This document shows, in pieces, positions 37,601 through 63,787 of a DNA stretch of 64,000 bases. The DNA is from a bacterium (lineage in GTDB: Bacteria; Electryoneota; Electryoneia; Electryoneales; Electryoneaceae): assembly GCA_963669175.1 (NCBI GenBank), contig OY769902.1, positions 704,001 through 768,000 on the forward strand, given 5' to 3'. Both the position numbers and the translations under genes were made by a program. Positions within the stretch are counted from its first letter, which is position 1; the number at the start of each line of letters is the position of its first letter. The notes beneath the pieces are model-generated. The model made no database searches. It was not told the origin of the DNA and saw only the letters and a list, made by a program, of their open reading frames with translations.

Positions 37601-37749
37601 GAATTTACAGGATGGAAAGGATATCAAGGATAGACAGGATTGCTTGATCAGGGATGAATCACGTTTGTTAAATCGTTATTTATTTCAGTAGTTAAGCCTT
37701 GCTTTCATCCTTGACATCCTTTATATCCTTGTCATCCTGTACATTCAAT
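37598..37749. repeat. Inverted pair of 9-bp periodic AGGAT/ATCCT tracts
   Basis: ATTGAATTTACAGGATGGAAAGGAT... and ...ATCCTTGTCATCCTGTACATTCAAT are complementary. Confidence 0.65.
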
Positions 37750-37854
37750 CAGCGAGTTCCTTCCTCGAAAGGGTTGACCTGGAATGGTATTTTGCCTGTT
37801 GCCAGTTTGCATGAGAAGCTCTATTTTCCGGGAAACAAAGAAAGCCAGCATGTT

Positions 37855-39669
37855 ATGGATGTTTTTCGCCGATTCGCCCACTACGTAAAGCCTTACTGGA
37901 TGCACATCGCGCTGGTGTTGTTGTGTACCGCGCTGTTTGTGGTGTTTTCCGCGTCGGCATACTGGTTGGGCGCATCGTTCCTTCAAGCCTTGTTTTCCGG
38001 TGAGCTGGTTGCTGCTGCGTCTCCCCCATCTATTACCGATCCCAACGCCTGGTTGAAATTTCAGACTCATCATCTATTGACTGGCACATCGCAGCAGGAA
38101 ACCCTTTTCCGTGCGGCCCTGGCCATTGTGATCGCTTTCGTATTGAAAAACCTGTTCAGCTACCTGCAACTGTATTTTTTCAGCTTCGTTGAACAGAAAG
38201 TGATAAAGGATCTGCGTGACGATTTGTTTGACAAACTGCTTCACCTGGACCTGGCCTTCTTTCAGCGCAAGCGTCGCGGCGATTTGATTTCCAACGTATT
38301 AAATGATGTAGAAGACTTAAACCAGGCGCTGAACAAGAGTTTTACCAAGAGTATCCGCGACCCTTTCAATGCGTTGCTGCTCTTTATCCTCCTGTTGGTG
38401 GTTAGCCCCAAACTGACACTTGCCGCATTGCTGGTAGTGCCTGCTGTGGGGTGGACAGTGCTGATGCTGGGACGATCAATCAAGCGCTATGCGGTCCATG
38501 TGCAGGAGGCGATTTCTTCTGTCACAACCCATCTTCAGGAAAGCCTGGGCGGAATTCGGGTAGTGAAAGCGTTTGCCGGCGAAACCTTTGAAAACAGACG
38601 TTTTCAGAAGTTGACCCAAAGTCATTACCAGTACGCCTTTGGACGTGAGCAATTAAAGCGTCTTGTTATTCCCCTGAATGAAATTGTAGGGGTGCTGATT
38701 ATAAGCGGCTTGCTTTTTGTTGGTGGCGATATGGTTCTGGTTCAGCGATCCATGAATTCGGAGGACTTTATCCGTTTCCTGGTCCTGCTTTTCGCCTTGT
38801 TGAATCCGATCATGAGTCTTGGGAACCTGTTTGCCAACATTCGCCATGCGGAAGCATCCGGCGGTCGTGTCTTTCGTGTGCTGGATGAGCCGGTTCGTCT
38901 TAGTCAACCGGACAACGCTGCGATACCCAAACAGTTTCAAGAGCGTTTCGAAGTACGGAATGTCTCTTTCCGTTACCAGGAAGATTTACCCTCGGTCATT
39001 GAATCCGTTGCTTTTACCATTCACCTGGGTGAACGGCTGGCGATTGTTGGTTCGAGTGGAAGCGGTAAGTCTACTCTCTTGAACCTGTTGCCGCGTTTTT
39101 ATGATGTAACGGATGGTGAGATACTCCTTGATGGTACTGACATTCGTGAGTTAGACCTTGCCGGTTACAGAAACCTGTTCGGTATTGTAACGCAGCAGGT
39201 TATCCTGTTCCATGACACCATTTTTGCCAACATCGCTTACGGCAATCCTTCAGCCTCACGTGAAGCTGTAATCGAGGCAGCCAAAGCAGCGTTTGCTGAT
39301 GAATTTATCAGTAAACTTCCTGAAGGATACGACACAATCGTTGGCGAGCAGGGTTCTTTATTGTCTGGTGGTCAGCGTCAACGGATCAGCATCGCCAGGG
39401 CGTTTTTACGCAAACCAGACATTATCTTGCTTGACGAAGCCTCCAGCGCACTGGACCCGGAAGCTGCGGCACAAGTGGAAGCGGCCCTGGAACGGTTGAC
39501 TGCCGGACGAACTGTTATTTCAGTAACCCACCGTATCAATACGGTTGAACATTTTGAGCGAATTCTGGTTTTAAAGGATGGACGTTTGATCGGGGACGGG
39601 CCACATAGAGAATTAATTCAAACATGTGAGCCCTACAGGAACCTTGCGATGACCCAGTCTGTTGCCTGA
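37855..39669 (+). CDS. MsbA-like ABC transporter (fused TMD-NBD)
   Basis: GSSGSGKST, LSGGQRQRI, ILLDEASSALD; TM helices; start chosen at MDVFRRF. Confidence 0.92.
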   Translation: MDVFRRFAHYVKPYWMHIALVLLCTALFVVFSASAYWLGASFLQALFSGELVAAASPPSITDPNAWLKFQTHHLLTGTSQQETLFRAALAIVIAFVLKNLFSYLQLYFFSFVEQKVIKDLRDDLFDKLLHLDLAFFQRKRRGDLISNVLNDVEDLNQALNKSFTKSIRDPFNALLLFILLLVVSPKLTLAALLVVPAVGWTVLMLGRSIKRYAVHVQEAISSVTTHLQESLGGIRVVKAFAGETFENRRFQKLTQSHYQYAFGREQLKRLVIPLNEIVGVLIISGLLFVGGDMVLVQRSMNSEDFIRFLVLLFALLNPIMSLGNLFANIRHAEASGGRVFRVLDEPVRLSQPDNAAIPKQFQERFEVRNVSFRYQEDLPSVIESVAFTIHLGERLAIVGSSGSGKSTLLNLLPRFYDVTDGEILLDGTDIRELDLAGYRNLFGIVTQQVILFHDTIFANIAYGNPSASREAVIEAAKAAFADEFISKLPEGYDTIVGEQGSLLSGGQRQRISIARAFLRKPDIILLDEASSALDPEAAAQVEAALERLTAGRTVISVTHRINTVEHFERILVLKDGRLIGDGPHRELIQTCEPYRNLAMTQSVA

Positions 39670-39717
39670 GGGCGCTTAAAACGGTATCCTCTGGTATCAC
39701 GGGATTGTATATGAGGG

Positions 39718-40836
39718 GTGGACATGCTGGATGATAGAGCACGTGTAGTTGTCATCTGTTCGAGCGACGGGTGGGCGGGGACCGAAAAATGGACCCTGCG
39801 GTCGTCCGAAGAGTTGTACAAGCGGAATCGTCGTGTTCTGATGCTGGTCCGTCGCCCAATCCTGTTCTCCGGCCGTGTAACAGTGAATGTCCCCTATCTG
39901 CGTGTACCCATGCGAAACGAAGCAGATATTTTTTCCCTTCGACGCATGGTGAGGCTGATCAAACGGAACGCGGACGTTGTTGTAGTAACCCGGGTGCGTG
40001 ACTACTGGCTGGGCGGTCTGGCGGCAAAACTGGCGGGGGTACCGGTCGTATTACGGCTTGGCGTTGTCCGTCGCCTGCGAGACTCCTACATCATGGATAA
40101 AATGCGGTACGGAAAACTGCCGCAACGCATCATGGTTAACGCCCAGGCAATTAAAGACAGCCTGGTTAAATCCCCCTGGATAGACCCGGATAAGGTTCAC
40201 ATTATCTATAACGGTGCGGATATCCGTGGCCATATCAGCGAAGAGAACCTCGGCTTTACCCGTCAATTGATCGGAGTGCCCCCGGATTCAACCCTGATTA
40301 TCGGTGCGGGACGGCTTGCGGTGGAAAAACGCTGGGAATGGCTAATTAAAGCCACGTCTATCCTGGTTGCCGAAGGCTATAATATTAACGTCCGTATTAT
40401 TGGACGTGGGTCTGAAGGACGCGATCTACAGAACCTGATCTTCGATTATAAAATTCAGCATCATGTGCAGCTTCCGGGTGAACGGCGCGATTCACACCTT
40501 TGGCTGTCTGCTGCCGACATTGTGGCCATGCCTTCCGAAAATGAAGGCATCTCCAACACGCTTCTTGAGGCTATGGGCGCTGAAGTGCCCGTGCTGGCCA
40601 TGAAATGTGGAGGGAATGCAGAGACTTTCACTGACGGAGAAAACATTTCCCTTTGCGAGATTGATGACTTTGACGATTTTGTCAATCGTTTGCGCATCCT
40701 GGTAAAAGACAGGGAGTTGCGTGAACGAATCGGTAAAGCCGGTTTCGAAGTAGTGAAAGAACGCTTTTCCTGGGAAAGAATGACCGATGAATACGAGGCT
40801 TTACTGGATCTGACCGCCAGTGAAGGTCGGAAATGA
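39718..40836 (+). CDS. GT4 glycosyltransferase
   Basis: IYNG, GRLAVEK, EGISNTLLEAM, FSWE. Confidence 0.9.
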   Translation: MDMLDDRARVVVICSSDGWAGTEKWTLRSSEELYKRNRRVLMLVRRPILFSGRVTVNVPYLRVPMRNEADIFSLRRMVRLIKRNADVVVVTRVRDYWLGGLAAKLAGVPVVLRLGVVRRLRDSYIMDKMRYGKLPQRIMVNAQAIKDSLVKSPWIDPDKVHIIYNGADIRGHISEENLGFTRQLIGVPPDSTLIIGAGRLAVEKRWEWLIKATSILVAEGYNINVRIIGRGSEGRDLQNLIFDYKIQHHVQLPGERRDSHLWLSAADIVAMPSENEGISNTLLEAMGAEVPVLAMKCGGNAETFTDGENISLCEIDDFDDFVNRLRILVKDRELRERIGKAGFEVVKERFSWERMTDEYEALLDLTASEGRK

Positions 40837-41924
40837 AAATCGCTTTCCTGAATTTCGCCCGCGACTTTGGCGGCGGCGAACACTGGACTATTCTTACAGC
40901 AGGCGGCTTGTCGGAACATGGGCATCAGGTGCTGCTGCTGGGACGTTCCGGTTCAACCTACCAGAATCGTGTCAACCAAGCTGGTTTGCAATACATGAGT
41001 GTCCCTGCTGGTCCGGATTATAACCCGATCACGATCTTATACCTGCTTCGAATCTTCCTGTACTTTCGCCCGGATGTTTTGATTGTCTCCCATAACAAAG
41101 ATGTTCGTAACGGCGCTGTAGCGGCATTATTTCTTGGTATTCCCGTATTACATCGTAACGGGTTCCCCATATTAAAGGATACCTGGCGACATCGTTTGAC
41201 CTATGCACTGACCAATCGGATCATCACCAACTCCCAACGCATCCGTGATCAGTATGCCGATATTCCATGGATTGATCCCAACACAATTGATGTGGTTCCC
41301 AATGGGATCGACCCACCGGAAACCATCCGGGATAAGCAACAGGTACGGTCGAACTTGAATCTCGCCCAAGATGCCTTTATTGTCATGTTCGCAGGACGGC
41401 TTACCACGACCAAGCATGTGGATGATCTGATAACAGCGATGAAACTAATGCCGGAAACGTCATCTGTACGGCTTGCCGTAATGGGTGACGGCCCGGAAGC
41501 CGAGTCCCTGAAACAACAGGCCGCAAACCTCGTTACATCGAACAGGGTCGTATTCCTGGGCTATCACGACGATGCTGCGGATAAACTGATGGCCGCTGAC
41601 CTGGTAATCCTGCCGTCCGACGACGAAGGAATGCCGAATACGCTGATGGAAGCGATGGTGCGCAAGATTCCGGTAGCAGCTACACCAGTTGGCGATGTAC
41701 CTTATCTTCTGGATGAGGGCAAAGCCGGCTGGTTGTTCCCGGTTGGATCACCGGAAAAGATAACTGAGCTGCTTGCGTCGCTGGAAAACCATCAGGATCT
41801 CCTGGACGAAATGGCCTCTGCGGGTTTTAAACAGATTCGTGACCATTTTTCCTTTTCCGACATGATCAGTGGCGTAGAACGATCCTGCAGGAGAACGATT
41901 CGAGTCCGTCGTGATCGTACGTAA
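40833..41924 (+). CDS. GT4 glycosyltransferase
   Basis: GGGE, VPNGID, AGRL...K, EGMPNTLMEAM. Confidence 0.9.
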   Translation: MKIAFLNFARDFGGGEHWTILTAGGLSEHGHQVLLLGRSGSTYQNRVNQAGLQYMSVPAGPDYNPITILYLLRIFLYFRPDVLIVSHNKDVRNGAVAALFLGIPVLHRNGFPILKDTWRHRLTYALTNRIITNSQRIRDQYADIPWIDPNTIDVVPNGIDPPETIRDKQQVRSNLNLAQDAFIVMFAGRLTTTKHVDDLITAMKLMPETSSVRLAVMGDGPEAESLKQQAANLVTSNRVVFLGYHDDAADKLMAADLVILPSDDEGMPNTLMEAMVRKIPVAATPVGDVPYLLDEGKAGWLFPVGSPEKITELLASLENHQDLLDEMASAGFKQIRDHFSFSDMISGVERSCRRTIRVRRDRT

Positions 41925-41942
41925 CATGAACCGGAATAGATC

Positions 41943-43022
41943 ATGGCTTCATTTCCACTGCTTACACGCGCCTGGTGGCGTACATTTGTCTTTCGCCTGA
42001 TCGGCGCATTGTCCTCAACCAAACATGTTTCCGGTACACCGCTTCCGGAAAAACCGAACCGAATCCTGGTTTTGACACCTGTTCTGCGTGGTGATTATAT
42101 CGTGCTTTCACCGCTGATTTCGGGATTGCGAAAGCTGCGCCCCTCATCTGAACTGGCCGTCGTCATCACACGTCCAAGTCACGACCTGGCCCAAGCAGAT
42201 CCCAATGTTGACAAGGTTATTCTATATAACAAGTTGCCTCGCTGGTTTCACTCAATACATGAAGTGTTTCGTTATCATCCGGATATTGTCGTGCTGCCGA
42301 AGGGCCATCCGGCGTTTACAGAAACCATGCTGGTTCTGCTGTCTCGCGCACGTTATCGTGTCGGCTTGAGTCACCCCCATCACAATTCTTTCCTCACCCA
42401 TGCGGTGGCGCATCGCGGGGAACGTGAACACCGGACCACAGCCTATGCGCGCCTGTTGAAACCGTTCGGCGCAGATCCGGCGACCATCAGCCGACGTCTG
42501 CATATCGGGGAAGACCCTGTCGGCGAAACCAAGGCGACAGTCTGGTTCGAAGATCATCCCGGTCCGTGGGTGGCGTTGAATCTTTCCGCAGGCGCATCGA
42601 CCCGCCTCTGGCCTCTGGAACGCTGGTCACAACTGATTGTGCAACTTCATGATCTGTATCCAAAATTGCGTTTTCTGACACTCGGCGTCGGCCCACAAGC
42701 GGAAGAATGCCAACAACTGGCGGAATCATTTGACTATGTGGAAACCATAAAGACAGGCTCATTCCTTGAGGCGGTGGCGTTTGTTGCACGTTGTAGCCTG
42801 CTGGTCAGCCCGGATACGGGAACTGTCCACGCTTCCGCTGCGCGACAGGTGCCGGTGTTCGTTCTTTACAACGGCGACCGTGAAAACTACATCCGTTTCT
42901 CCCCCGCTTCTGTACAACATGATTGCGTGTTCGCGGAAGAGGGCCAGGATGTGAATAGCTTATCCGTTCCGGACGTTTTTAACAAGCTTGCGCCATTTAT
43001 CAAAACACTGGGAATCGAATGA
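41943..43022 (+). CDS. GT9 (heptosyltransferase-like) glycosyltransferase
   Basis: RGD, TRLWP..RW, SPDTGTVHASAA. Confidence 0.88.
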   Translation: MASFPLLTRAWWRTFVFRLIGALSSTKHVSGTPLPEKPNRILVLTPVLRGDYIVLSPLISGLRKLRPSSELAVVITRPSHDLAQADPNVDKVILYNKLPRWFHSIHEVFRYHPDIVVLPKGHPAFTETMLVLLSRARYRVGLSHPHHNSFLTHAVAHRGEREHRTTAYARLLKPFGADPATISRRLHIGEDPVGETKATVWFEDHPGPWVALNLSAGASTRLWPLERWSQLIVQLHDLYPKLRFLTLGVGPQAEECQQLAESFDYVETIKTGSFLEAVAFVARCSLLVSPDTGTVHASAARQVPVFVLYNGDRENYIRFSPASVQHDCVFAEEGQDVNSLSVPDVFNKLAPFIKTLGIE

Positions 43023-44989
43023 ACGAAGAGCAACCTCTACCCGTATTGCTTGTGGATGAAGGACCGCCGCAGATATCCCTGTACGCTTACCTGCTGATGG
43101 CTGTCTGGTTGGTTGCGCTTGTGATCGGTGTCGTATTAACTGATACGTATTTCTTCTATTACATAATGATTGGGGCAACACTTCTGGCAATTCTTGCCAC
43201 CGTTGCAGGTTGGTTGTCACTTCCACGATACTGGTTCTTAGCCTTGTTGTTTGTATTCTGGAATGTCTTCCCCACCTTGTTTGAATTGCGATCGTCCAAC
43301 TTGAGCTACTATCGACTGGAAAGCCTGATACCATTCCTACTCCCCTTGATGTTCCTTATTGCATACCTCCTTCTTGTCCGTGGTTTCTGGTTCTTTCATC
43401 TGACATTCATCCCAATCTTTTTCCTTTGTATTGCCATTCCTGTCTCCATGCACAGGATCAGTGGACGTTGGTATAATTCCACCTTCGACGGCATTCCTTA
43501 TCATGGTCTCGGGGCTTACGCACATACGCTTTGGATAATCATAAGCACCCTGCTTCTTTTCCTCTTAATCCGGACCTACTACAAACGAATGCGCTCCTGG
43601 AAGCATCAATGGTATTTTATTTCACTCGGAACCCTACTTTTTCTCCCCCTGATTGCCAGTATGGTCCGGGTTACCATAGACATCTCTATAATTCACGACT
43701 TGGCCCCTTGTAGCGTATTTTTATTTACGGCTTTTATTGCATTGGTTGAGATCTATATCAGGCGTGATTCAACCCTTCATCCACGTGAAAGATTGACCCC
43801 TTTGCGTGGATATCTTGAAGAAATCGCTCTCGCTGCCAGTTCTTCGCTGAATTTTATCTTTCGTAAGGCACCTGAACCGATTTCTTCAGACTCCAAAACT
43901 CCTCGATTTGATGTGCATCCTTTGCGCAGTGACCCACACGGTAAACGTGTATACAGCCCCTATTTACCCGGAAAACCTGTATGGGTGCCGGTCTGTATGC
44001 ACATGCACTCAAACCGATGGGAAGGCAAGTTTACCGTAAAAGAAATGCTGGATTATTACCAGGCTTGTGGAGCTGGAAGTGTTATCATTACTGAACATAA
44101 TCGTATTACCCAAGCTGTTCATCCGGTCGCCGGCCCCCCCACATACGAACACGGCTGGGGCCCGCATCATCACCATGTTTTAGCATTGGGCGCTGAACGG
44201 ACTTTCAGCGACGCCTACCCCCTCGGAAGCGGCTTTGAACAGAAGCAAAAAACTCTGCAAACCTTGCGCAACCATTCTCGTTTTCTCGTCCTTGCTCACC
44301 CGAATCATCACAACGCCTGGACGTTTGATGATGTCAAAAAACAGGATTACGATGCTCTTGAAATCTTCAACAAATCCTGTGAATCGCTTGACCATTGGCG
44401 TCACGCTTTAAACACCGGACGCGTTGTCTGGGGAACAGCCGGGGATGATTGTCATGATTTACGCAGTCGTCATCAAACCGCAAAACGCTTTCTCCTGGTG
44501 GATGCGCGATTGACAAAACAAGAGCTCGAATACCTTGATTCTCTCACTCATACAAGTGGGGTATCAAGTTGTGAGTATAAACTTTTACCGCACGATTATA
44601 CTACTGAAATACCAGATACGGTAGCCTGCGTGGCACAGGAAAGCGACTATGGATTTAATACTATTTCCCCTGATACTCTCCTGCTATTGCTTCACCTTGG
44701 ACGTTTTGTATCTGTACAGATCAAGGATCGCTTTATCACGAGATCACTCCAGGAAGCTTTGTCAATTATGATAGAAAACATTGAACGCACTGAAGAAAAT
44801 CTGCTGTCGTTTCATTTGGATCATCAACCTGATACAGTTTCTATTATCAGTGACTTCGAGGCTGATTGTACTCAGAAAGAATATACCTATTCTTGCCTGA
44901 TTGGCACTCCGAGGGCCACATCATACTGCGCTGCAACGATTAGTAAAGCAACTACAACCATTGCACTGAACCCTGTTATACGCTACTAG
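43019..44989 (+). CDS. Multi-TM membrane protein fused to a PHP-family metallophosphoesterase domain
   Basis: About 7-8 TM helices, then HMHS, ITEHN, E..H, LAHP, EIFN, GDDCH. Confidence 0.75.
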   Translation: MNEEQPLPVLLVDEGPPQISLYAYLLMAVWLVALVIGVVLTDTYFFYYIMIGATLLAILATVAGWLSLPRYWFLALLFVFWNVFPTLFELRSSNLSYYRLESLIPFLLPLMFLIAYLLLVRGFWFFHLTFIPIFFLCIAIPVSMHRISGRWYNSTFDGIPYHGLGAYAHTLWIIISTLLLFLLIRTYYKRMRSWKHQWYFISLGTLLFLPLIASMVRVTIDISIIHDLAPCSVFLFTAFIALVEIYIRRDSTLHPRERLTPLRGYLEEIALAASSSLNFIFRKAPEPISSDSKTPRFDVHPLRSDPHGKRVYSPYLPGKPVWVPVCMHMHSNRWEGKFTVKEMLDYYQACGAGSVIITEHNRITQAVHPVAGPPTYEHGWGPHHHHVLALGAERTFSDAYPLGSGFEQKQKTLQTLRNHSRFLVLAHPNHHNAWTFDDVKKQDYDALEIFNKSCESLDHWRHALNTGRVVWGTAGDDCHDLRSRHQTAKRFLLVDARLTKQELEYLDSLTHTSGVSSCEYKLLPHDYTTEIPDTVACVAQESDYGFNTISPDTLLLLLHLGRFVSVQIKDRFITRSLQEALSIMIENIERTEENLLSFHLDHQPDTVSIISDFEADCTQKEYTYSCLIGTPRATSYCAATISKATTTIALNPVIRY

Positions 44990-54118: not shown

Positions 54119-54367
54119 TTATTCCATGCCGGGGTTGATTCCATCCTCGGTTTTTTCTTGGTATAACCTGTCATCGTGAGGGTAATGAGGTTCGTAATCG
54201 TCTTCCAGAATCCTGGCCACAATCGTTGAAATCAGAGCCACTACAATGGAAATCACCACCACCAGCATAAAGCGCTTTGTGTCTGTGCTGATCTTTGACC
54301 ACCAGCTTTTCTTCTTTCTAGTCTTTCTTCTTTGTCGGTACGTACTTTTGCTGCTTGGGCGTGGCAT
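54119..54367 (-). CDS. Small single-TM protein with basic N-terminus
   Basis: 82-aa ORF with K/R-rich N-terminus and one TM helix; AGGAG upstream is weak; overlaps the end of the wzy-like gene. Confidence 0.55.
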   Translation of the reverse strand: MPRPSSKSTYRQRRKTRKKKSWWSKISTDTKRFMLVVVISIVVALISTIVARILEDDYEPHYPHDDRLYQEKTEDGINPGME

Positions 54368-55853
54368 TCAGGATTCTCCCGGTCAAGAACGAAATCTGAT
54401 GAGGCTGGATTGGTTGCTCTTCCTCCAGCTCATCGTCGCCACGTTTTTTACGTTCTTCCGCTTCCAGAAGTTCCGGCAACGCAACGACAAGCGCTAACAG
54501 AAACCAGAATGGTTCCATGACACGCACAATTATAAATGTATTAGCTCCAACCGCGTGGAGCAACAGCCCCCAATACCCTGCGATGAACCCCATGATCATG
54601 CCATGATATAGCGGATATTTTTTGTAGGTTACCATATCAAGGCTGCGTTTCGCCGTTCGGTGGATGGAAATAAGGAGACCAAAGAAGAAGAGAAACCCTA
54701 TGGCTCCTGTCTCGGCCAGTACGCGGAAATACTGGGCATCTTTGAAGCCGACACCGGTAACCCCCCACCCGAAGAAAGGACGTTCCGACCATTGCGCCAG
54801 TGTTGTGGACCAGGATTGGATACGTTCCGATGTAGAAGGGTCCAGTGATGTGTCCCCTACTTTTACAACGTCATCGCGTATCTGGTTTTCCGGTGAAAAA
54901 GTGTACTCAACGCGATTCCAGACTGATTCCGGCATGATGATCGGGAGGAAAAGCATGGCCACCATACACAGCGCAATGATCGTCTTGCGTTTTTCCGAAT
55001 AGTAAATCAAGCCGACTATGGCAGGAAACAACGACATCCAGGAAGATCTGGACAGTGTATAGGCGAATGGGATAAGCATTATAAATACGGCGGCGGCCAT
55101 CTGGAAAAGCCGTTTTGCGCGTTTCTGCCCGGTCATCATCCCCATTACGACAGCCATGATTAATACCAGGTACCCGCCAAGCGTGTTGGCCTCTCCCCCC
55201 TCCCCTTCGAATGGTGCGGACACACGAACCCCGCTGGGAATCTGGCTCATTGCATACAGGCTGACTATAATTGCTGTTACAATAATTAACTTAACATATC
55301 TTCGCAATGTTTCCATATCTGTTACGTGTGATATAACCATAAAGTAAATTAAATAGTATTGAAAATATTTAACATTATATAAGATACCTATTAAAGGCTT
55401 TACATCACCAAAAAATACGCCTAGAATGGTAGAAAAGAGGCTGGCGCCTATATACAGGAAGATTGGACGATTAAGAGGCGAATGCCTGAATATTCCCAAA
55501 TCTTTATTCACAGCCGTTTTTATCAGCCATGAAAACATGATCAATCCCAGCATCAGGTCATCAATACGAACGACAACCCCGCGATGCGACATCTGCCCCT
55601 GCCCCCCGGCGGAACCAACATTGAATTCCGGGGACAACAACATGGAGAGGATTAGAATAATCAGGGCAAAATCGGTATTCAGGAAGGCGAACAGAAAAAT
55701 TCCCATCCCGAGCACAACCATGATCGCCAGGCCTTCACTCATACCTACAAGGCTGCTGACTCCAAAGGCGAGCACCATCAAGACGAGGAAACCAGCTATG
55801 GCAACCAGACGTGTGTTTGGTCCGGAGATGGTATCACTGCCTGGCAACGGCAT
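54318..55853 (-). CDS. O-antigen ligase/Wzy polymerase family membrane protein
   Basis: About 12 TM helices; EANTLGGYL, TLSRSSW, R...W...PFFGWG, LAETGAIG. Confidence 0.85.
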   Translation of the reverse strand: MPLPGSDTISGPNTRLVAIAGFLVLMVLAFGVSSLVGMSEGLAIMVVLGMGIFLFAFLNTDFALIILILSMLLSPEFNVGSAGGQGQMSHRGVVVRIDDLMLGLIMFSWLIKTAVNKDLGIFRHSPLNRPIFLYIGASLFSTILGVFFGDVKPLIGILYNVKYFQYYLIYFMVISHVTDMETLRRYVKLIIVTAIIVSLYAMSQIPSGVRVSAPFEGEGGEANTLGGYLVLIMAVVMGMMTGQKRAKRLFQMAAAVFIMLIPFAYTLSRSSWMSLFPAIVGLIYYSEKRKTIIALCMVAMLFLPIIMPESVWNRVEYTFSPENQIRDDVVKVGDTSLDPSTSERIQSWSTTLAQWSERPFFGWGVTGVGFKDAQYFRVLAETGAIGFLFFFGLLISIHRTAKRSLDMVTYKKYPLYHGMIMGFIAGYWGLLLHAVGANTFIIVRVMEPFWFLLALVVALPELLEAEERKKRGDDELEEEQPIQPHQISFLTGRILNATPKQQKYVPTKKKD

Positions 55854-55858
55854 GATGA

Positions 55859-58180
55859 TTATCCCCTGCGACGGCGCTTACGGCCGCCACCAAGACCTTT
55901 GATACGATCCAGGAGGGTACCTTTACGACGTGATCCTTCACCAACAATCTCGTCCTGACGGCGATCGGTGGAACCGTAATAACGTCCGTAGTAGTAGTGG
56001 GAACCGGAGTATCCGGCGATATTAGCTTTCAGGTCGTTTAACACAATGCCCAGCACTGTTGCGCCAACCGCTTCCAACTGCACCTTGGCACGCTTCAGTG
56101 CGGCGCGTGGCACTTTCCCGGTACGATAGATCAACACTGTCGCATCGGCACGGTTAGCCAGGATGGACGAGTCTGTTACCGGCAATACCGGCGGGCAGTC
56201 AAGCAATACCAGGTCATATTCTTCGCGGGCTTCATCCAGGAACGCTTTCATCCGTTTCGAACCAAGCATTTCCGCCGGGTTGGGCGGAATACCACCACTG
56301 GTAATGATGTGCAGGTTTTCCATGCCCGGGGTCATCAGGATTGAATCCATCCCAAGACCGCCGATCAGCATATCCGTCACACCTTTAACCGTATCATGCC
56401 AGTCCATACGCCCCAGCACGATATCCGTCACACCATTTTCCTGTTCCAGCCCGAATGTTTTGTAAATCGTCGGACGACGCAGGTTGCATCCTACAAGCAG
56501 GATCTTTACACCGTCCTGGGCGAGCGTAAGGGCCAGGTTGACCAGTGTGGTCGATTTACCTTCCTGCAGGGCCGCAGAAGTCGCTACAATCGTCCTGATG
56601 GGACGATTAATGGAACGGAACTGCAATGTAGTACGCAACGTCCTGTAGGCTTCGGCAACCGGGTCTTTGGGCGCAAACTGCACAACGAGACGCGCAATGG
56701 ATTCCAGGTGCGGATTCTCTTCCATTGCCGGGTTGCTTCTCAGCAGACGGTCAATCACAGAATCAATATCAATATTGGGAATGACACCCAGTACAGGCAC
56801 CTGCAGGTATTCTTCCACATCTTCAATCGTACCGATGGATGTGTCGAAGGTTTCAAAAAGCAGTGCAAGCACAAGACCCAGCATCAAGCCGATCACGATA
56901 CCAACGCCCAGTGTACGGCCCATATTGATGTTGATCGGCTTTTCACTAAGCATGGCTGGACGCACGATCACAACTTCTTCGGCCTGGTCAGCTTCCCTGA
57001 TCCTGGCTTCCAGCAATTTTTCACTCAGGAAATCGTATTGCTCCGCACGCAGGTCAACTGTACGCACCAGTTGCACATACCGCCGTTGCGTCTCCGGAAC
57101 CTTATCCAGAATACTCTCCTTCATGTTGATATAATCCTGCAGAGAATCCATCTGCATGACATACACATCAAGGTTGCCACGGACTTCATGCCTTAGGTCG
57201 GCCAGAAGCCTTTCGATACGTTTTTCCAGTTCCACCAGGAGCGGGTAATCCGGCTTGTAGCGTTCCAGCATATTCCGTTTCTGGATCTCAAGCTGAATCA
57301 ATTCATTGTTAAGAATGCCAAGCGGTCCATCACCCTGTGGTGTACTGATCCAGGTCAAGGTTATGGTATCGCCTGCGCTGATTACAACACGTGGCGGTAC
57401 GCTTGATGTATCACTCCACATCATCGGTTCGATGACCGGTTTCCCGAGACGCAGATCGATCTGGTCCAATTGTATCTGGAGTTCTTTGATATCGGCTTCA
57501 ATGATCCGCTCTTCTTCTTTGAGCTGGATCAATTCTTCCATGCGGATACGAACATGCTCATCAACAACGGGGTAAGGATTCTGTTCCCGGAACCATTTTA
57601 GAGCAAGTTCGGCGTTCTGTAGCAGTGAATCGGAATGGTTTACCTGGCGTTCGATAAAGACACGTGTATCGCGGTCCTGCTTGGCTTTCTGAGCCTTATG
57701 ACGATATACAAATTCTTCCGCCAGGTACTGCGCCATATCTCGCGCTTCACGCGGATCGCTGGATGTCACAAAGATGTCAATGATATTAGTTCGGCCGCTC
57801 CTTTCGGTGCTGACCTTACCTATCATATTATTAATTCTTCGAGATAAGCGTGGATCATTACGCACATCCATGCTTGTCATGGTAGAGTCGACAATATCCA
57901 TTCGTCGCGCAACTGCTTCCATTACGGGGAAGCTGCGTATCAACTCCTCCGCCGTCTCGATATTATCCCAGCGGGAATACGTCAGGCGTTGAAGCAGAAG
58001 TCCGGCAACGGTGCTGGTTTCCTCGATCTTCACCGAAGAAAAAGTAGTGTACAGCGGGATACGTGACTTACCGAAGAAGAAGCTGAACCCGGCAACCAGA
58101 ATCGTAGAAAAGAGGATCACCTTCCATCTGCGACGGAAGATCCTCTGGTAATCACGTAAATTCAGGTCGTATTGCGCCAT
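55859..58180 (-). CDS. wzc: Wzc-type polysaccharide co-polymerase / tyrosine autokinase
   Basis: Wzz-like N-terminus; AEAYRTLRT, QEGKST, PPNPAEML, DCPPVL; C-terminal Tyr cluster YSGSHYYYGRYY. Confidence 0.93.
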   Translation of the reverse strand: MAQYDLNLRDYQRIFRRRWKVILFSTILVAGFSFFFGKSRIPLYTTFSSVKIEETSTVAGLLLQRLTYSRWDNIETAEELIRSFPVMEAVARRMDIVDSTMTSMDVRNDPRLSRRINNMIGKVSTERSGRTNIIDIFVTSSDPREARDMAQYLAEEFVYRHKAQKAKQDRDTRVFIERQVNHSDSLLQNAELALKWFREQNPYPVVDEHVRIRMEELIQLKEEERIIEADIKELQIQLDQIDLRLGKPVIEPMMWSDTSSVPPRVVISAGDTITLTWISTPQGDGPLGILNNELIQLEIQKRNMLERYKPDYPLLVELEKRIERLLADLRHEVRGNLDVYVMQMDSLQDYINMKESILDKVPETQRRYVQLVRTVDLRAEQYDFLSEKLLEARIREADQAEEVVIVRPAMLSEKPININMGRTLGVGIVIGLMLGLVLALLFETFDTSIGTIEDVEEYLQVPVLGVIPNIDIDSVIDRLLRSNPAMEENPHLESIARLVVQFAPKDPVAEAYRTLRTTLQFRSINRPIRTIVATSAALQEGKSTTLVNLALTLAQDGVKILLVGCNLRRPTIYKTFGLEQENGVTDIVLGRMDWHDTVKGVTDMLIGGLGMDSILMTPGMENLHIITSGGIPPNPAEMLGSKRMKAFLDEAREEYDLVLLDCPPVLPVTDSSILANRADATVLIYRTGKVPRAALKRAKVQLEAVGATVLGIVLNDLKANIAGYSGSHYYYGRYYGSTDRRQDEIVGEGSRRKGTLLDRIKGLGGGRKRRRRG

Positions 58181-58198: not shown

Positions 58199-59026
58199 CT
58201 ACCGGGTCAACAGAATCGTTAGGGTTACAACTTGCAAAACCAATACGGCCACCTGTGCAATTCGGACAGCCTTCACAAGGAAGGTTTCGCCAACAGGATG
58301 CGCATACACCTGGTCACCATTGATTAACAGGATATCCTGGGACACATCACCCAGGTTATAGTAGGATTCCAGATCGATCAGGATTCGTTCACCTGTATTG
58401 CGAAGCACCCAGATTTCCCGTGTTTCAGCCTCGGGCAACAAGCCACCATGATCAGCAACGAAGTCTGTCAATAACTGGGGACGAGGTAGAGGGTAAATTC
58501 CCTGATGTACAAAAGCCCCCAGAAGTGTCGCATTGTGGGATACGTAATCCATGATACGGACAAGGACAACCGGGGCAATGATATACCGGTCCAGTTTCGT
58601 ACGTATCAGTTGTTCAAGTTCAACCGGAGTTCTTCCTCCGGCAACCACATTTCCAATCAGGGGAACAAAGATGGTGCCGTCATCCTGAACAACAACATCA
58701 ACCGGACGGCCGTCATCTTCAAAATCACGCCTGTCATAAAAAACAAGGCGCAGTTTATCTTTCGGGCCAAGCGGATAATAACGGCTGGCTCGTTCAACAC
58801 TATCCTGTTGCTCGACCACTCTTTCGATGTACTGAATGGCTTGAACGGTATCAGGTGGGACCACCTCGTCAAATTCAAGCTTCCAGTCCATAAAAGTGGT
58901 ATCAATATCGCGGTCCGGTTCCGGGATGTCCGTAATCTGTTCCTGCCCCAGGAGAAGATAAGGCACAGCTAACAGCAATACGAAAACCAGTACGAACTTA
59001 GCCAGTATTTGTTTCGCAGACGCCAT
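58199..59026 (-). CDS. Polysaccharide export protein (Wza/Poly_export plus SLBB)
   Basis: YPLGPKDKL, VQDDGTIFVPLIG...GRT..EL, LGAF...G.Y, HGGL, DILLINGD. Confidence 0.88.
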   Translation of the reverse strand: MASAKQILAKFVLVFVLLLAVPYLLLGQEQITDIPEPDRDIDTTFMDWKLEFDEVVPPDTVQAIQYIERVVEQQDSVERASRYYPLGPKDKLRLVFYDRRDFEDDGRPVDVVVQDDGTIFVPLIGNVVAGGRTPVELEQLIRTKLDRYIIAPVVLVRIMDYVSHNATLLGAFVHQGIYPLPRPQLLTDFVADHGGLLPEAETREIWVLRNTGERILIDLESYYNLGDVSQDILLINGDQVYAHPVGETFLVKAVRIAQVAVLVLQVVTLTILLTR

Positions 59027-59084
59027 CTTCCTCGACAAAGAAATGAAAACATACCCCGATTTGGCATAGAATATAGGCATCTTT

Positions 59085-59975
59085 TTATCTAAAAGCTAGA
59101 AGTTTAGAAAATTTTTCCCTTAATATTTCTGTGCTTGAAACTCTATGCAATACATTACTTAACTGCTGTAAAGCTAAAGTTTTACTGTCTGAATGATAGG
59201 TTAGTTCAAGTACATCTGTCAGGCGTATTCCCTCGTTTCTTATCGTACCATCCCCCAGCCCCTTGCGAAGCAGAACCATGCTCTTGACTTTGGTTTCAGG
59301 AATCCAGTTCAGGGTATCTGATTCAACAGCCGATTTTCCGTCTTTTTCAATATGTGACAAGGAAAACTGGGGATATCTTTCCCAAACATCCTGCATGGCC
59401 CGTGGTGGTTCTCCCATCCCCCAGGCAATGACATCATTGGCCTCTTCCCGCACTTCCAAGAAGACAAGATCATCTGCGAGGTATTCCGCACCGAGGTTCA
59501 GAGCATGAAGTACTGCACTGGTTTTTCCGGCCCCTGATGCCCCTGCAATCAGGATACCTTCACTATTCAGCTCCACCGCAGCAGCATGCATGGCACGTAT
59601 CCCAAACGGAGCCAGGGTAGCAACCAGGGCCGGAGCGATAATCTGGCGTGCGGGGCTGTCTGTTTTACGCCATGCGGATTCACTCAACACAACGCGGACA
59701 AGACGTTCCGGTTCTCGAATTTCTATGACAGGACCAATATGAGGGTGTACAAATAGAATTGTTGAATCATCACGAAAAGCTTCAAAGAGGGCATGATGGA
59801 AAAGAAAGGGCTCCATGTTAGATGTTGATACATCAAGTCGCCCGGTTTCCAGAACCATCTGAATATCAGGGTGAACTGTCTTGGGTTCTTCTATACCTAG
59901 CCGAAGGTTGAAAACAGGTACGCCATGACCACGCAAGATATCAAGGACGACCGCACCTATACGAACACGCTTCAT
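59085..59975 (-). CDS. HprK-related kinase
   Basis: MHAAAV, GILIAGASGAGKTS (Walker A), YLADD. Confidence 0.85.
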   Translation of the reverse strand: MKRVRIGAVVLDILRGHGVPVFNLRLGIEEPKTVHPDIQMVLETGRLDVSTSNMEPFLFHHALFEAFRDDSTILFVHPHIGPVIEIREPERLVRVVLSESAWRKTDSPARQIIAPALVATLAPFGIRAMHAAAVELNSEGILIAGASGAGKTSAVLHALNLGAEYLADDLVFLEVREEANDVIAWGMGEPPRAMQDVWERYPQFSLSHIEKDGKSAVESDTLNWIPETKVKSMVLLRKGLGDGTIRNEGIRLTDVLELTYHSDSKTLALQQLSNVLHRVSSTEILREKFSKLLAFR

Positions 59976-60238
59976 GAACGCTCCACCAGAAAGCTTCTGT
60001 CGAGCAATTCCTTAATAAATCGTTCTATATCGTCAAGCACTACTTCAGTAACATCTATTCCAAGCCGTCGGCATACATTTTCAGCGAGCGCTTCCAGGTT
60101 TTCGGACTTGCCAATATATTGCCATATCAGGTAGGCTGTCCTGTTGACCACTATGTAGGATCCATCATCCTTGAGCAGCAGCAATCCATCATCAACTTCC
60201 TGGATGGCCAGATCCGGATTGGGAACCGGTATAGACAT
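59972..60238 (-). CDS. Stand-alone PqqD-family protein (RiPP recognition element)
   Basis: 88 aa; VDDGLLLL, Y..VNRTAYLIW, DIERFIKELL...LV; GGGGAG RBS. Confidence 0.88.
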   Translation of the reverse strand: MSIPVPNPDLAIQEVDDGLLLLKDDGSYIVVNRTAYLIWQYIGKSENLEALAENVCRRLGIDVTEVVLDDIERFIKELLDRSFLVERS

Positions 60239-60256: not shown

Positions 60257-61396
60257 TTACTTGGAATGCCACAGGACCGAACCCAGTGTTTTCGCACGGT
60301 TTTTCACATACCAGCCCAATGCAGGATCAGGATCATTCGCTTCCTGCAACACGGACACCGGCGGGAAAGCCGTATGCAGAAGATAATGAACCATTCCTTC
60401 CATATCATCCAATAAATCTGCCATTGCCAATACTCTTCTTCCTCCTCCCTGCCGCACCATATGCCCGTGTATCAGGTTACCAGCCGATCTCCTCTGTAGT
60501 GACCACGCGGTCCAGCGATCCATTGCGATATGCTGCAAGGGGTGTGGCTGTCTCCCATACACCATCATGGATAATTCAAGTCCCGTTCGAACTGCGCGGT
60601 ACACTTTCCATTCTCTGCACCTGCGATAAAATGAGTCATTCCGGATGTGTTCTTTCCATTCTTGAAGGGTAAAATGAAGATCGAGCAACCAATCCAGCCT
60701 GAAATAGCCATGACGCACGCTGTGAAGGGCGGCCAGGATCAAATGGTCCTCCCAGTGCGGCACACGCGCTTCTATTCCTTCGGATAACATGACGTGAACT
60801 GCTTTTGCGAACAGATCTTCCGGTGGAATCCAGAATGGTTCCGTGCGATCTACAGGCGCTCGATGAAGATCAACCGTAACCGGACTGGCAGGATGTTTGA
60901 AAACAGCAGCGAACCCATAATGGTCCTGAATCTCATTTGTTCTCTTCCAGTGTACTGTGGGAAGTTGTTGCCATCCGGCATTCTTGAAGGTAGCAGCAAT
61001 CTGCTGAAATTCACCCGGCCTGGTAATCAGATCAATATCACCCGGATTTCGCTGGTAAACTTCCGGATATACTTCCCCGAGCGCGAGACCTTTAAACAGT
61101 AGAACACTATCCGCATTAAAAAGCTTGTAAACGTCCTTCAGGGCGTTGCTGACAAGTTTTCTTCTGGCCTTGCCGGGAATTACCGTCTTATCCAGATAAT
61201 TCATTCCAGATGGCGAAAAACAGGTTTTCCAGTGATTGTTGTGCTTAATCCTGTCGCTTGCCAGCGCCCCGAGGCCATGATGAACCAGTAGACTTGTAAG
61301 CGAATCTGTTTCAGGAAATGGATCCGGAGGGAGATTGCCTGTCAGTAAACGCGCCACCGTATACAGCAATAATCGTTCTTCTTCAGGACTCTTCAT
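60257..61396 (-). CDS. Nucleotidyltransferase family protein (NTP_transf_5-like)
   Basis: LLFKGLAL..VYP....R..GDIDL, VDLH, HLIL..LH..RH, WLLDL. Confidence 0.87.
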   Translation of the reverse strand: MKSPEEERLLLYTVARLLTGNLPPDPFPETDSLTSLLVHHGLGALASDRIKHNNHWKTCFSPSGMNYLDKTVIPGKARRKLVSNALKDVYKLFNADSVLLFKGLALGEVYPEVYQRNPGDIDLITRPGEFQQIAATFKNAGWQQLPTVHWKRTNEIQDHYGFAAVFKHPASPVTVDLHRAPVDRTEPFWIPPEDLFAKAVHVMLSEGIEARVPHWEDHLILAALHSVRHGYFRLDWLLDLHFTLQEWKEHIRNDSFYRRCREWKVYRAVRTGLELSMMVYGRQPHPLQHIAMDRWTAWSLQRRSAGNLIHGHMVRQGGGRRVLAMADLLDDMEGMVHYLLHTAFPPVSVLQEANDPDPALGWYVKNRAKTLGSVLWHSK

Positions 61397-61423
61397 GGCA
61401 ATCCTGCTTACATGCGTAACATG

Positions 61424-61449
61424 AAAAACGCACCTTTACGGCGCGTTTT
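61424..61449 (-). terminator. Stem-loop with U tail after the peptide gene
   Basis: Minus strand AAAACGCGCC-GTAAA-GGTGCGTTTTT. Confidence 0.55.
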
Positions 61450-61467
61450 ATCGGAAAAGAACTCCTC

Positions 61468-61476
61468 TTATCCACA
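61468..61476 (+). promoter_or_regulatory. Single perfect DnaA box
   Basis: TTATCCACA in intergenic DNA; isolated, could be chance. Confidence 0.3.
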
Positions 61477-61499
61477 ATTCTCCTGCTACAGCGTATTTT

Positions 61500-61637
61500 T
61501 CACGGACCCCAAGGATCCGGTTCGTCGCTGAAAAGACGAGCCTCAACGCGTCCCTCTTCCAGAATCTTCGGTGGTTCCCACTTGGGTTCCTGAGGGTCGT
61601 TGGACAAGTCCTGTGTCATGTCTTTTTCGTTCTTCAT
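61500..61637 (-). CDS. Putative RiPP-like precursor peptide (45 aa, not in the ORF track)
   Basis: MKNEKDMTQDLSNDPQEPKWEPPKILEEGRVEARLFSDEPDPWGP; GAAGGAG RBS; KWEPPKI leader motif; upstream of the NTase/PqqD/kinase genes. Confidence 0.75.
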   Translation of the reverse strand: MKNEKDMTQDLSNDPQEPKWEPPKILEEGRVEARLFSDEPDPWGP

Positions 61638-61681
61638 CAAACTGACTCCTTCTATCCTGCTTCACTTACTGACGTTGTTGC

Positions 61682-63787
<2,106 letters not shown>

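Follow-up and report, generated by a model that had tools for sequence, protein, structure and literature searches.

A conserved 45-codon gene upstream of nucleotidyltransferase, RRE and HprK-like kinase genes in Candidatus Electryoneota, a probable precursor gene of an LPP-type peptide-modification pathway

The operon and the evidence for its peptide gene

The window (the whole stretch of DNA that was analysed, 64,000 nucleotides) carries a seven-gene operon on its minus strand, in which a small peptide gene is followed by the genes of an NTP_transf_5 nucleotidyltransferase (NTase), a discrete PqqD-type RRE, an HprK-like P-loop kinase and three proteins of the Wza, Wzc and Wzy_C types, respectively (Table 1). 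The peptide gene is an ORF of 45 codons plus stop (ATG at 61637-61635, stop at 61502-61500), lies 44 nt downstream of gyrB (61682-63739) and encodes a product of 45 aa, MKNEKDMTQDLSNDPQEPKWEPPKILEEGRVEARLFSDEPDPWGP. There is an in-frame TTG one codon 5' of the ATG, and a start at this codon would give a product of 46 aa. The peptide gene is separated by 103 nt from the NTase gene, which is the first of six tightly packed minus-strand genes with intergenic gaps of -4 to 18 nt, the start of the kinase gene overlapping the stop of the PqqD gene by 4 nt. The unit ends at 54318 and is followed by yidC-mnmE-mnmG-rsmG on the opposite strand.

Table 1. Positions of the genes and sequence features of the operon in the window
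Feature	Position	Strand	Basis
Shine-Dalgarno-like GAAGGAG	61646..61652	minus	8 nt 5' of the peptide ATG
Probable precursor peptide gene (LppA-like)	61500..61637	minus	ORF; kept in 13 related genomes; purifying selection
Putative RRE-binding motif WEPPKILEEG, codons W20-G29	61551..61580	minus	17-sequence alignment; hydrophobic spacing like that of the LPP leader
Near-invariant tail LFSDEPDPWGP (putative core), codons L35-P45	61503..61535	minus	Alignment invariance
Ser37, predicted phosphorylation site	61527-61529	minus	Invariant in 17/17
8-bp hairpin with short U run, candidate attenuator	61423..61447	minus	Fold of the peptide-NTase gap, -30.5 kcal/mol, z = -2.46
NTP_transf_5 nucleotidyltransferase (LppN/PsmN-like)	60257..61396	minus	PF14907, E 3.1e-31, 109.3 bits vs 31.2 cut-off
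Discrete PqqD-type RRE (LppB/B1-like)	59972..60238	minus	PF05402, E 4.1e-10, 40.3 bits vs 23.4 cut-off
HprK-like P-loop kinase (LppK-like)	59085..59975	minus	PF07475, E 1.7e-6; TIGR04355, E 1e-7; both below cut-off
Wza-type outer-membrane polysaccharide export protein	58199..59080	minus	PF02563, E 2.1e-17
Wzc-type chain-length determinant / tyrosine autokinase	55859..58180	minus	TIGR01007, 177.8 bits vs 108 cut-off
Wzy_C / O-antigen-ligase-family membrane protein, last gene of the unit	54318..55853	minus	PF04932, E 9.4e-12

The NTase residues K102, G103, D120 and D122 were invariant in 10 sequences, and the AF2 model of the enzyme (pLDDT 90.7) had a Pol-beta-type NTase fold. No PDB sequence matched the NTase below E 0.19, and the fold search returned 2 matches at E ≤ 0.001 with a low TM (0.34 of the query). 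The fold neighbours were distant (MenT1, ANT(2'')-Ia and LnuA), and the fold gives no specific chemistry because the matches are generic Pol-beta NTases. The RRE profile, compared with solved RREs, matched TbiB1 at 4.9e-12, PbaB1 (9x90) at 1.6e-7 and LppB (9x8z_B) at 0.0072. The kinase has GASGAGKT as its Walker A motif, the matches to PF07475 and TIGR04355 cover its P-loop region, and G145, G150, K151 and D169 were invariant in 11 sequences; in the PDB, true HPr kinases matched it at E 1e-3.

An ABC exporter gene was found neither among the seven operon genes nor in the corresponding loci of 6 syntenic relatives, and the closest ABC gene lies on the other strand, at a distance of 15 kb. The plus strand of the window at 37699-44989, about 15 kb from the operon, encodes an MsbA-like ABC transporter and, after it, two GT4 glycosyltransferases, one GT9 glycosyltransferase and an unannotated protein of 656 aa.

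Neither Pfam nor NCBIfam gave a match to the peptide itself. By a six-frame search, strong matches to the peptide (E ≤ 1.2e-8) were obtained in 13 of 60 related genomes; weak matches in 8 further genomes (E 0.02-0.48) were taken as noise and left uncounted. In the window's own genome (G000), no paralogue of the peptide was found even at E ≤ 10. The relatives keep [W/Y]xxPxI...LFSDEPDPWG with synonymous codon changes, and purine-rich Shine-Dalgarno-like runs are present 5' of the ATG in most of the homologues. When the last 25 codons were compared in 13 sequences, each invariant residue was encoded by 2-4 synonymous codons, the mean dN was 0.23 and the median dN/dS was 0.14 in the 28 finite pairs, the pairs with saturated dS (50 of 78) being excluded from the median. 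The 45-codon ORF is thus a real gene, conserved and under purifying selection, and no chance ORF. An earlier note on this DNA, made from its letters alone, had proposed an unannotated 45-aa peptide with a GAAGGAG ribosome-binding site, to be sought in relatives between gyrB and the NTase gene; the gene and the site were both confirmed, and the conservation check at that place was positive.

When one genome per species (185,579 in total) was scanned for LFSDEPDP, 51 pattern matches were obtained, 13 of which encode peptide relatives. All 13 are on contigs of genomes already among the related set, with Ca. Electryonea clarkiae and Ca. Tariuqbacter arcticus among them, and they represent two classes of Ca. 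Electryoneota (FCB group). Precursor genes of such cassettes rarely exist as called proteins, a search of 5.8 billion proteins having given 7 members of the peptide family with the query included. A profile search of 1.84 billion representatives gave 11 proteins, i.e. 10 small proteins and one tandem-repeat artefact. The latter (P0011, 1115 aa) is a perfect tandem array in which a 55-aa unit is repeated about 20 times, looks like a product of assembly or gene calling, and was set aside as a non-member because its score is the sum of weak matches over 20 stretches.

The sigma-70 promoter scan returned 0 sites, a result that is uninformative for an FCB-group host. The terminator scan of 61200-61900 called no terminator, the hairpin in the peptide-NTase gap included. 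This hairpin is kept only as a possible attenuator because it is not conserved in the relatives, in which a peptidase gene fills the gap in place of the hairpin.

Leader motif, core and predicted contact with the RRE

For the comparison of the peptides, 17 sequences were aligned. M1, P23, L35, F36, S37, D38, E39, P40, P42 and G44 were invariant in 17/17, and I25, E32, D41, W43 and P45 were nearly invariant. The N-terminal approximately 18 residues are variable, acidic and Lys-rich. The lengths in the family range from 38 to 54 aa; the N-terminal extension varies, the core of 10-11 residues is invariant, and the family pattern can be written as [W/Y]xxPxI(L)xx(G/K)x(V/I/L)Ex(x)LFS, the window peptide carrying W20-x-x-P23-x-I25. 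Two aligned members deviate at the aromatic anchor, which is missing in register in P0006 and shifted in P0007. The C-terminal 33 residues contain no Ser besides Ser37, and S12, the second Ser of the peptide, is in the variable N-terminus; the conserved Ser was kept in all 10 small proteins obtained from the 1.84 billion representatives, the divergent P0012-P0018 among them. Two further proposals of the earlier note, that of a lasso-type RRE-binding motif in the leader and that of a single C-terminal Ser as a candidate kinase site, agree with the alignment as far as the residues are concerned: the window peptide carries [W/Y]xxPx[I/L], the Pro of the motif is invariant in all 17 peptides, and the same holds for the Ser.

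The peptide profile gave chance-level matches only against the PDB (E 0.37), and no significant overall sequence similarity of the peptide to solved leader chains was found. In the predicted complex of the RRE with the peptide, computed from alignments made for the purpose, the ipSAE was 0.59 (0.59, 0.60 and 0.58 in the respective runs) and that of the best control 0.00, with a partner pLDDT of at least 55 and with the runs agreeing in at least 91% of the contacts. Of 157 solved complexes, 116 pass the mark used for such predictions, as do 2 of 215 mismatches; at an ipSAE of 0.60 or under, only 18 of the 157 solved complexes pass, together with both of the passing mismatches, and the pass obtained here may reflect likeness alone because RRE-leader complexes have already been solved. 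The prediction accordingly read lends weak support to the binding. We infer that the peptide binds the RRE through its leader and that Ser37 is the residue phosphorylated by the kinase.

Gene linkage, the proposed pathway and its alternatives

Within the GTDB family, orthologues of the peptide, the NTase (E ≤ 1.6e-56) and the kinase (E ≤ 7.1e-32) were found in 10 of 15 relatives, the genomes being the same in each case. In the other 5 (G005, G011 and G013-G015; completeness 86-96%) none of the three was found, and an orthologue of Wzy_C was likewise not found in these 5 genomes at E ≤ 1e-10. These counts are to be read as a pattern and not as a statistical test, because the relatives are kin. 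In 7 loci of peptide-positive genomes, Wzy_C was 53-79% identical by tblastn. The gene order pep-NTase-PqqD-HprK-Wza-Wzc-Wzy_C was entire in 6 loci and was cut by contig ends in 3 more. In G003 the operon is split, PqqD-HprK-Wza-Wzc-Wzy_C remaining beside gyrB and the peptide and NTase genes being together on another contig. Since the peptide-modification genes and Wza-Wzc-Wzy_C were either found together or all not found across the family, a role in surface polysaccharide is suggested.

A further gene joins the set in most of these genomes. Directly 3' of the peptide gene, 8 of 11 peptide-positive family genomes have an S24-like ORF of 136-163 aa carrying G-x-S-M-x-P-x-L-x-x-G-D. Four of these ORFs were scanned with PF00717 (Peptidase_S24), by which three were matched (two above the cut-off and one below) and the fourth was not. 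S32, H75 and D90 were invariant in 11/11 aligned peptidases, the alignment comprising, besides the family ORFs, the archaeal-type signal peptidase encoded in G000 and S24-like proteins from two other families, and these residues are therefore a candidate Ser-His-Asp triad. No peptidase ORF was found in the 103-nt gap of the window's genome or beside the peptide gene of G004, and a contig break keeps the status of G001 from being judged. G000 has two such peptidases elsewhere, in two further RRE clusters. The peptidase of the cluster at 3.42 Mb was considered as a general trans-acting partner of the peptide and was rejected, since 4 peptide-negative genomes have homologues of it and, among the peptide-positive ones, 5 have them and in 5 none was found.

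Because the gene is conserved, occurs together with the enzymes and is co-localised with them, and has a leader motif and a spacing matching those of the linear polyphosphorylated peptides (LPP), the ORF is probably the ribosomal precursor, i.e. the LppA-like substrate, of an LPP-type peptide-modification pathway. In the mechanism proposed for it, the PqqD-type RRE would bind W20-x-x-P23-x-I25 as an added beta-strand, and by this docking the segment 17 residues downstream would be presented to the HprK-like kinase, by which Ser37 may be phosphorylated, possibly several times. The NTP_transf_5 enzyme would then modify the phospho-Ser, the presumed glycosylation most likely giving a phosphate-linked sugar as with PsmN in pseudomycoidin. 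In most relatives, the leader would be removed near L35/F36 by the putative Ser-His-Asp S24/S26 peptidase. The window's genome appears to have lost the peptidase gene, and its peptide may therefore remain at full length or be cut in trans, e.g. by the archaeal-type signal peptidase of the 3.42-Mb cluster. The product may finally act with the co-inherited Wza-Wzc-Wzy_C surface-polysaccharide export genes, which is the biological role that we infer.

In the phylum's two other families (f4 and f7), represented by G018, G023 and G028, the arrangement is different. Clusters of S24-like peptidase, NTP_transf_5, PqqD and HprK-like genes are present in G018 and G023, with a PEP-CTERM-type ATPase gene after the HprK-like gene in G018, and in G028 the contig stops after S24-NTase. 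The peptide genes of the three genomes are away from the RRE cluster, 30-50 nt upstream of genes for Por_Secre_tail (T9SS) proteins of 721-895 aa, one gene being between the peptide gene and the T9SS-sorted protein in G018. For this reason, the linkage with the enzymes in these two families is one of genome-level co-occurrence only. A search for other [YW]xxPx[LIVFA] precursors near the S24-NTase clusters of G018, G023 and G028 gave none that was convincing.

The neighbourhood in these three genomes, with T9SS-sorted proteins and not enzymes beside the peptide gene, would be in keeping with an unmodified small acidic adaptor or regulator, in which LFSDEPDPWGP is a docking motif for the export machinery or for the T9SS-sorted proteins and no substrate of the kinase or the NTase. 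The last 27 aa of the peptide are about 75-80% identical vs 31-57% for the NTase, PqqD and HprK, and such conservation of the tail also fits a binding motif. We nevertheless regard such an adaptor as unlikely, since the peptide co-occurs fully with the three enzymes inside the family and stays with the NTase where the operon is split, has [W/Y]xxP with an invariant Pro and an invariant Ser at an LPP-like distance, and is followed directly by the leader-peptidase gene in 8 of 11 genomes.

The T9SS proteins beside the peptide genes (L022 186-5307; L023 2543-5356; L021 5060-8698; L024 2849-5488) share an unannotated region of approximately 480 aa. In G000, 3 of the 6 best homologues of this region (E < 1e-20; ranks 1, 4 and 5) flank a second LPP-like cluster within a 17-kb stretch, and G000:C1:3410838-3418218, which adjoins that cluster, holds such homologues. 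The second LPP-like gene set itself (G000:C1:3418627-3424349; locus L051, 10627-16349) encodes a TM-PqqD fusion, a ScmC-type kinase, an archaeal-type signal peptidase, an MsbA-like ABC exporter and an NTase. No [YW]xxPx[LIVFA] precursor candidate was found near this 3.42-Mb cluster. Two further genes of the same genome are of the types considered here. One is an NTP_transf_5 gene (413 aa; G000:C1:977079-982493; locus L037, 4079-9493), which has as neighbours the genes of an HD-GYP-type protein, a polysaccharide deacetylase, an unannotated protein of 305 aa, a thymidylate-kinase-like protein and an 89-aa ORF. The other is a fourth PqqD-domain gene (PF05402, 55.7 bits) at G000:C1:4414186-4414374.

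It is conceivable that the peptide is a RiPP precursor whose true maturation is carried out by the T9SS-linked set of G000 at 3.419-3.424 Mb, and that its position beside the RRE, kinase and NTase genes of the window is secondary. Such a route could draw on a full LPP-like set with peptidase and exporter included, on the 480-aa-region homologues of ranks 1, 4 and 5 within 17 kb around that set and on the 721-895-aa Por_Secre_tail proteins flanked by the peptide genes in G018, G023 and G028. The peptidase homologues of the set, however, do not track the peptide in the family, whereas the triad of the window tracks it fully, and this route is accordingly held to be quite improbable.

The peptide is therefore best kept as the probable LppA-like substrate of the enzymes beside it, and on this reading an LPP-like system is present in an uncultured phylum of the FCB group, though LPP were called restricted to Bacillota (PMC13381572). 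The locus would supply a clear and conserved precursor for its lineage. Being tiny and invariant, the core makes an easy synthetic substrate and an easy target for mass spectrometry, and the natural variants with and without the leader peptidase ease the approach to the question of function.

A more speculative extension, in which we place little confidence, is that FSDEPDPWGP serves as a glycan acceptor, phospho-Ser37 receiving a phosphodiester-linked sugar from the NTP_transf_5 enzyme and Wzy_C, Wzc and Wza extending and exporting the chain. If this were true, the product would be a ribosomal-peptide-primed or peptide-capped exopolysaccharide, and the T9SS-sorted proteins beside the peptide in the sister lineages would be its surface partners. 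We know of no described glycoconjugate class of peptide-primed or peptide-capped exopolysaccharides.

Comparison with known systems

The phosphorylated or phosphoglycosylated lasso module (PadeK of paeninodin; PsmK and PsmN of pseudomycoidin) is alike in having an HprK-like kinase and a Ser in an RRE-bound precursor, and in paeninodin-type leaders W is the anchor residue (PMC8498205, PMC6993621). In pseudomycoidin, PsmN is needed for the addition of one or two hexoses to the phospho-Ser, and the likeness extends to this NTP transferase, by which hexose is added to the phosphate (PMC6993621). The lasso Ser, however, is C-terminal in a peptide cyclised by C and B2, whereas the Ser of the window peptide is internal and is accompanied by neither a cyclase nor B2. 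The peptide can hardly be a lasso precursor itself. The leader does fit [Y/W]xxPx[L/I]x3G, and lasso B1 proteins are the closest relatives that the RRE has in the PDB, but no lasso macrolactam synthetase or B2 gene was found among the seven operon genes, PF13471 had 0 matches in the window's genome (95.9% complete), the residues before the Ser are L-F, so that the penultimate leader position is L or F and not Thr, and the tail has only 9-11 residues after the leader. The earlier note had likewise remarked on the missing Thr(-2) and on a tail too short for a lasso, and had suggested a different RiPP class; the former points hold, and the latter is borne out by a gene set and a leader pattern that match LPP.

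The HPr-rel-A (TIGR04352/TIGR04353) and SynChlorMet (TIGR04248/TIGR04249) systems are alike in combining a PqqD-family chaperone with an HprK-related kinase. They are found near polysaccharide loci according to the NCBIfam descriptions. They differ from the system studied here in that the window scores were far below the cut-offs (18.1 vs 35, 31.4 vs 200, 22.3 vs 100 and 17.1 vs 125 bits) and in that the window operon has no radical SAM genes. A SynChlorMet-like cassette is present elsewhere in the window's genome (G000:C1:2171091-2177232; locus L052, 3091-9232), with genes of an HprK-like protein, a radical SAM/SPASM protein, a PqqD protein, an S24/S26 peptidase, a second radical SAM/SPASM protein and an ABC exporter. 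In the RRE-Finder paper, HPr, kinase, nucleotidyl, polysaccharide and exosortase are not mentioned, and none of the Electryoneota papers listed is, by title, about peptides.

The closest likeness is to LPP, described by Popov et al. (Nat Commun 2026; PMC13381572) from the lppA-K-B-S-D-N genes of Paenibacillus alginolyticus and other Bacillota. The LPP clusters comprise an archaeal-type signal peptidase (LppS, catalytic residues S29, H68 and D93), an RRE (LppB), an HprK-like kinase (LppK), an NTP transferase (LppN) and an MsbA-like exporter, and are often embedded in capsule loci (PMC13381572). Their precursors, 35-200 aa long, share YxxPxVLxHQxIxFETxxS as a conserved N-terminal sequence and vary at the C-terminus; several phosphates are added by LppK to core Ser3, an internal residue just past the leader, and LppS cuts after T-1, aided by LppB (PMC13381572). 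As far as the text of that paper drawn on here goes, activity of LppN was not seen in the heterologous host, neither the final product nor the function of LPP is known, and LPP are called restricted to Bacillota (PMC13381572).

The window operon is alike in having a discrete RRE together with both an HprK-like kinase and an NTP transferase, most of its relatives have a small Ser-His-Asp signal-peptidase-like protease in addition, and both systems sit in capsule/EPS loci. Counted from the aromatic anchor, the hydrophobic positions of the window family are P at +3, I/V at +5, L/V/I at +6, V/I/L at +11 and A/V/I at +13, against P at +3, V at +5, L at +6, I at +11 and F at +13 in the LPP logo (PMC13381572), and the invariant Ser is at +17 in the window family vs +18 in LPP.

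The differences are of several kinds. The window system is in Ca. Electryoneota of the FCB group and not in Bacillota. By profile scores, TbiB1 and PbaB1 are nearer to its RRE in sequence than LppB is. Its operon is without the MsbA-like exporter and, in the window's genome, also without a peptidase, and the unit is translationally coupled to Wza-Wzc-Wzy_C, with which it was jointly found or jointly not found. In its precursor the core is invariant and the N-terminus is variable, whereas in LPP the N-terminus is conserved and the cores are variable. With an invariant core here and high variability among the cores of LPP, the product may differ from LPP in its kind of role, and the invariance would point to a conserved molecular partner rather than to an antibiotic arms race. 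What is new here is accordingly the phylum, the architecture of the precursor and the fixed coupling to the export trio, the kind of system itself having been published in 2026.
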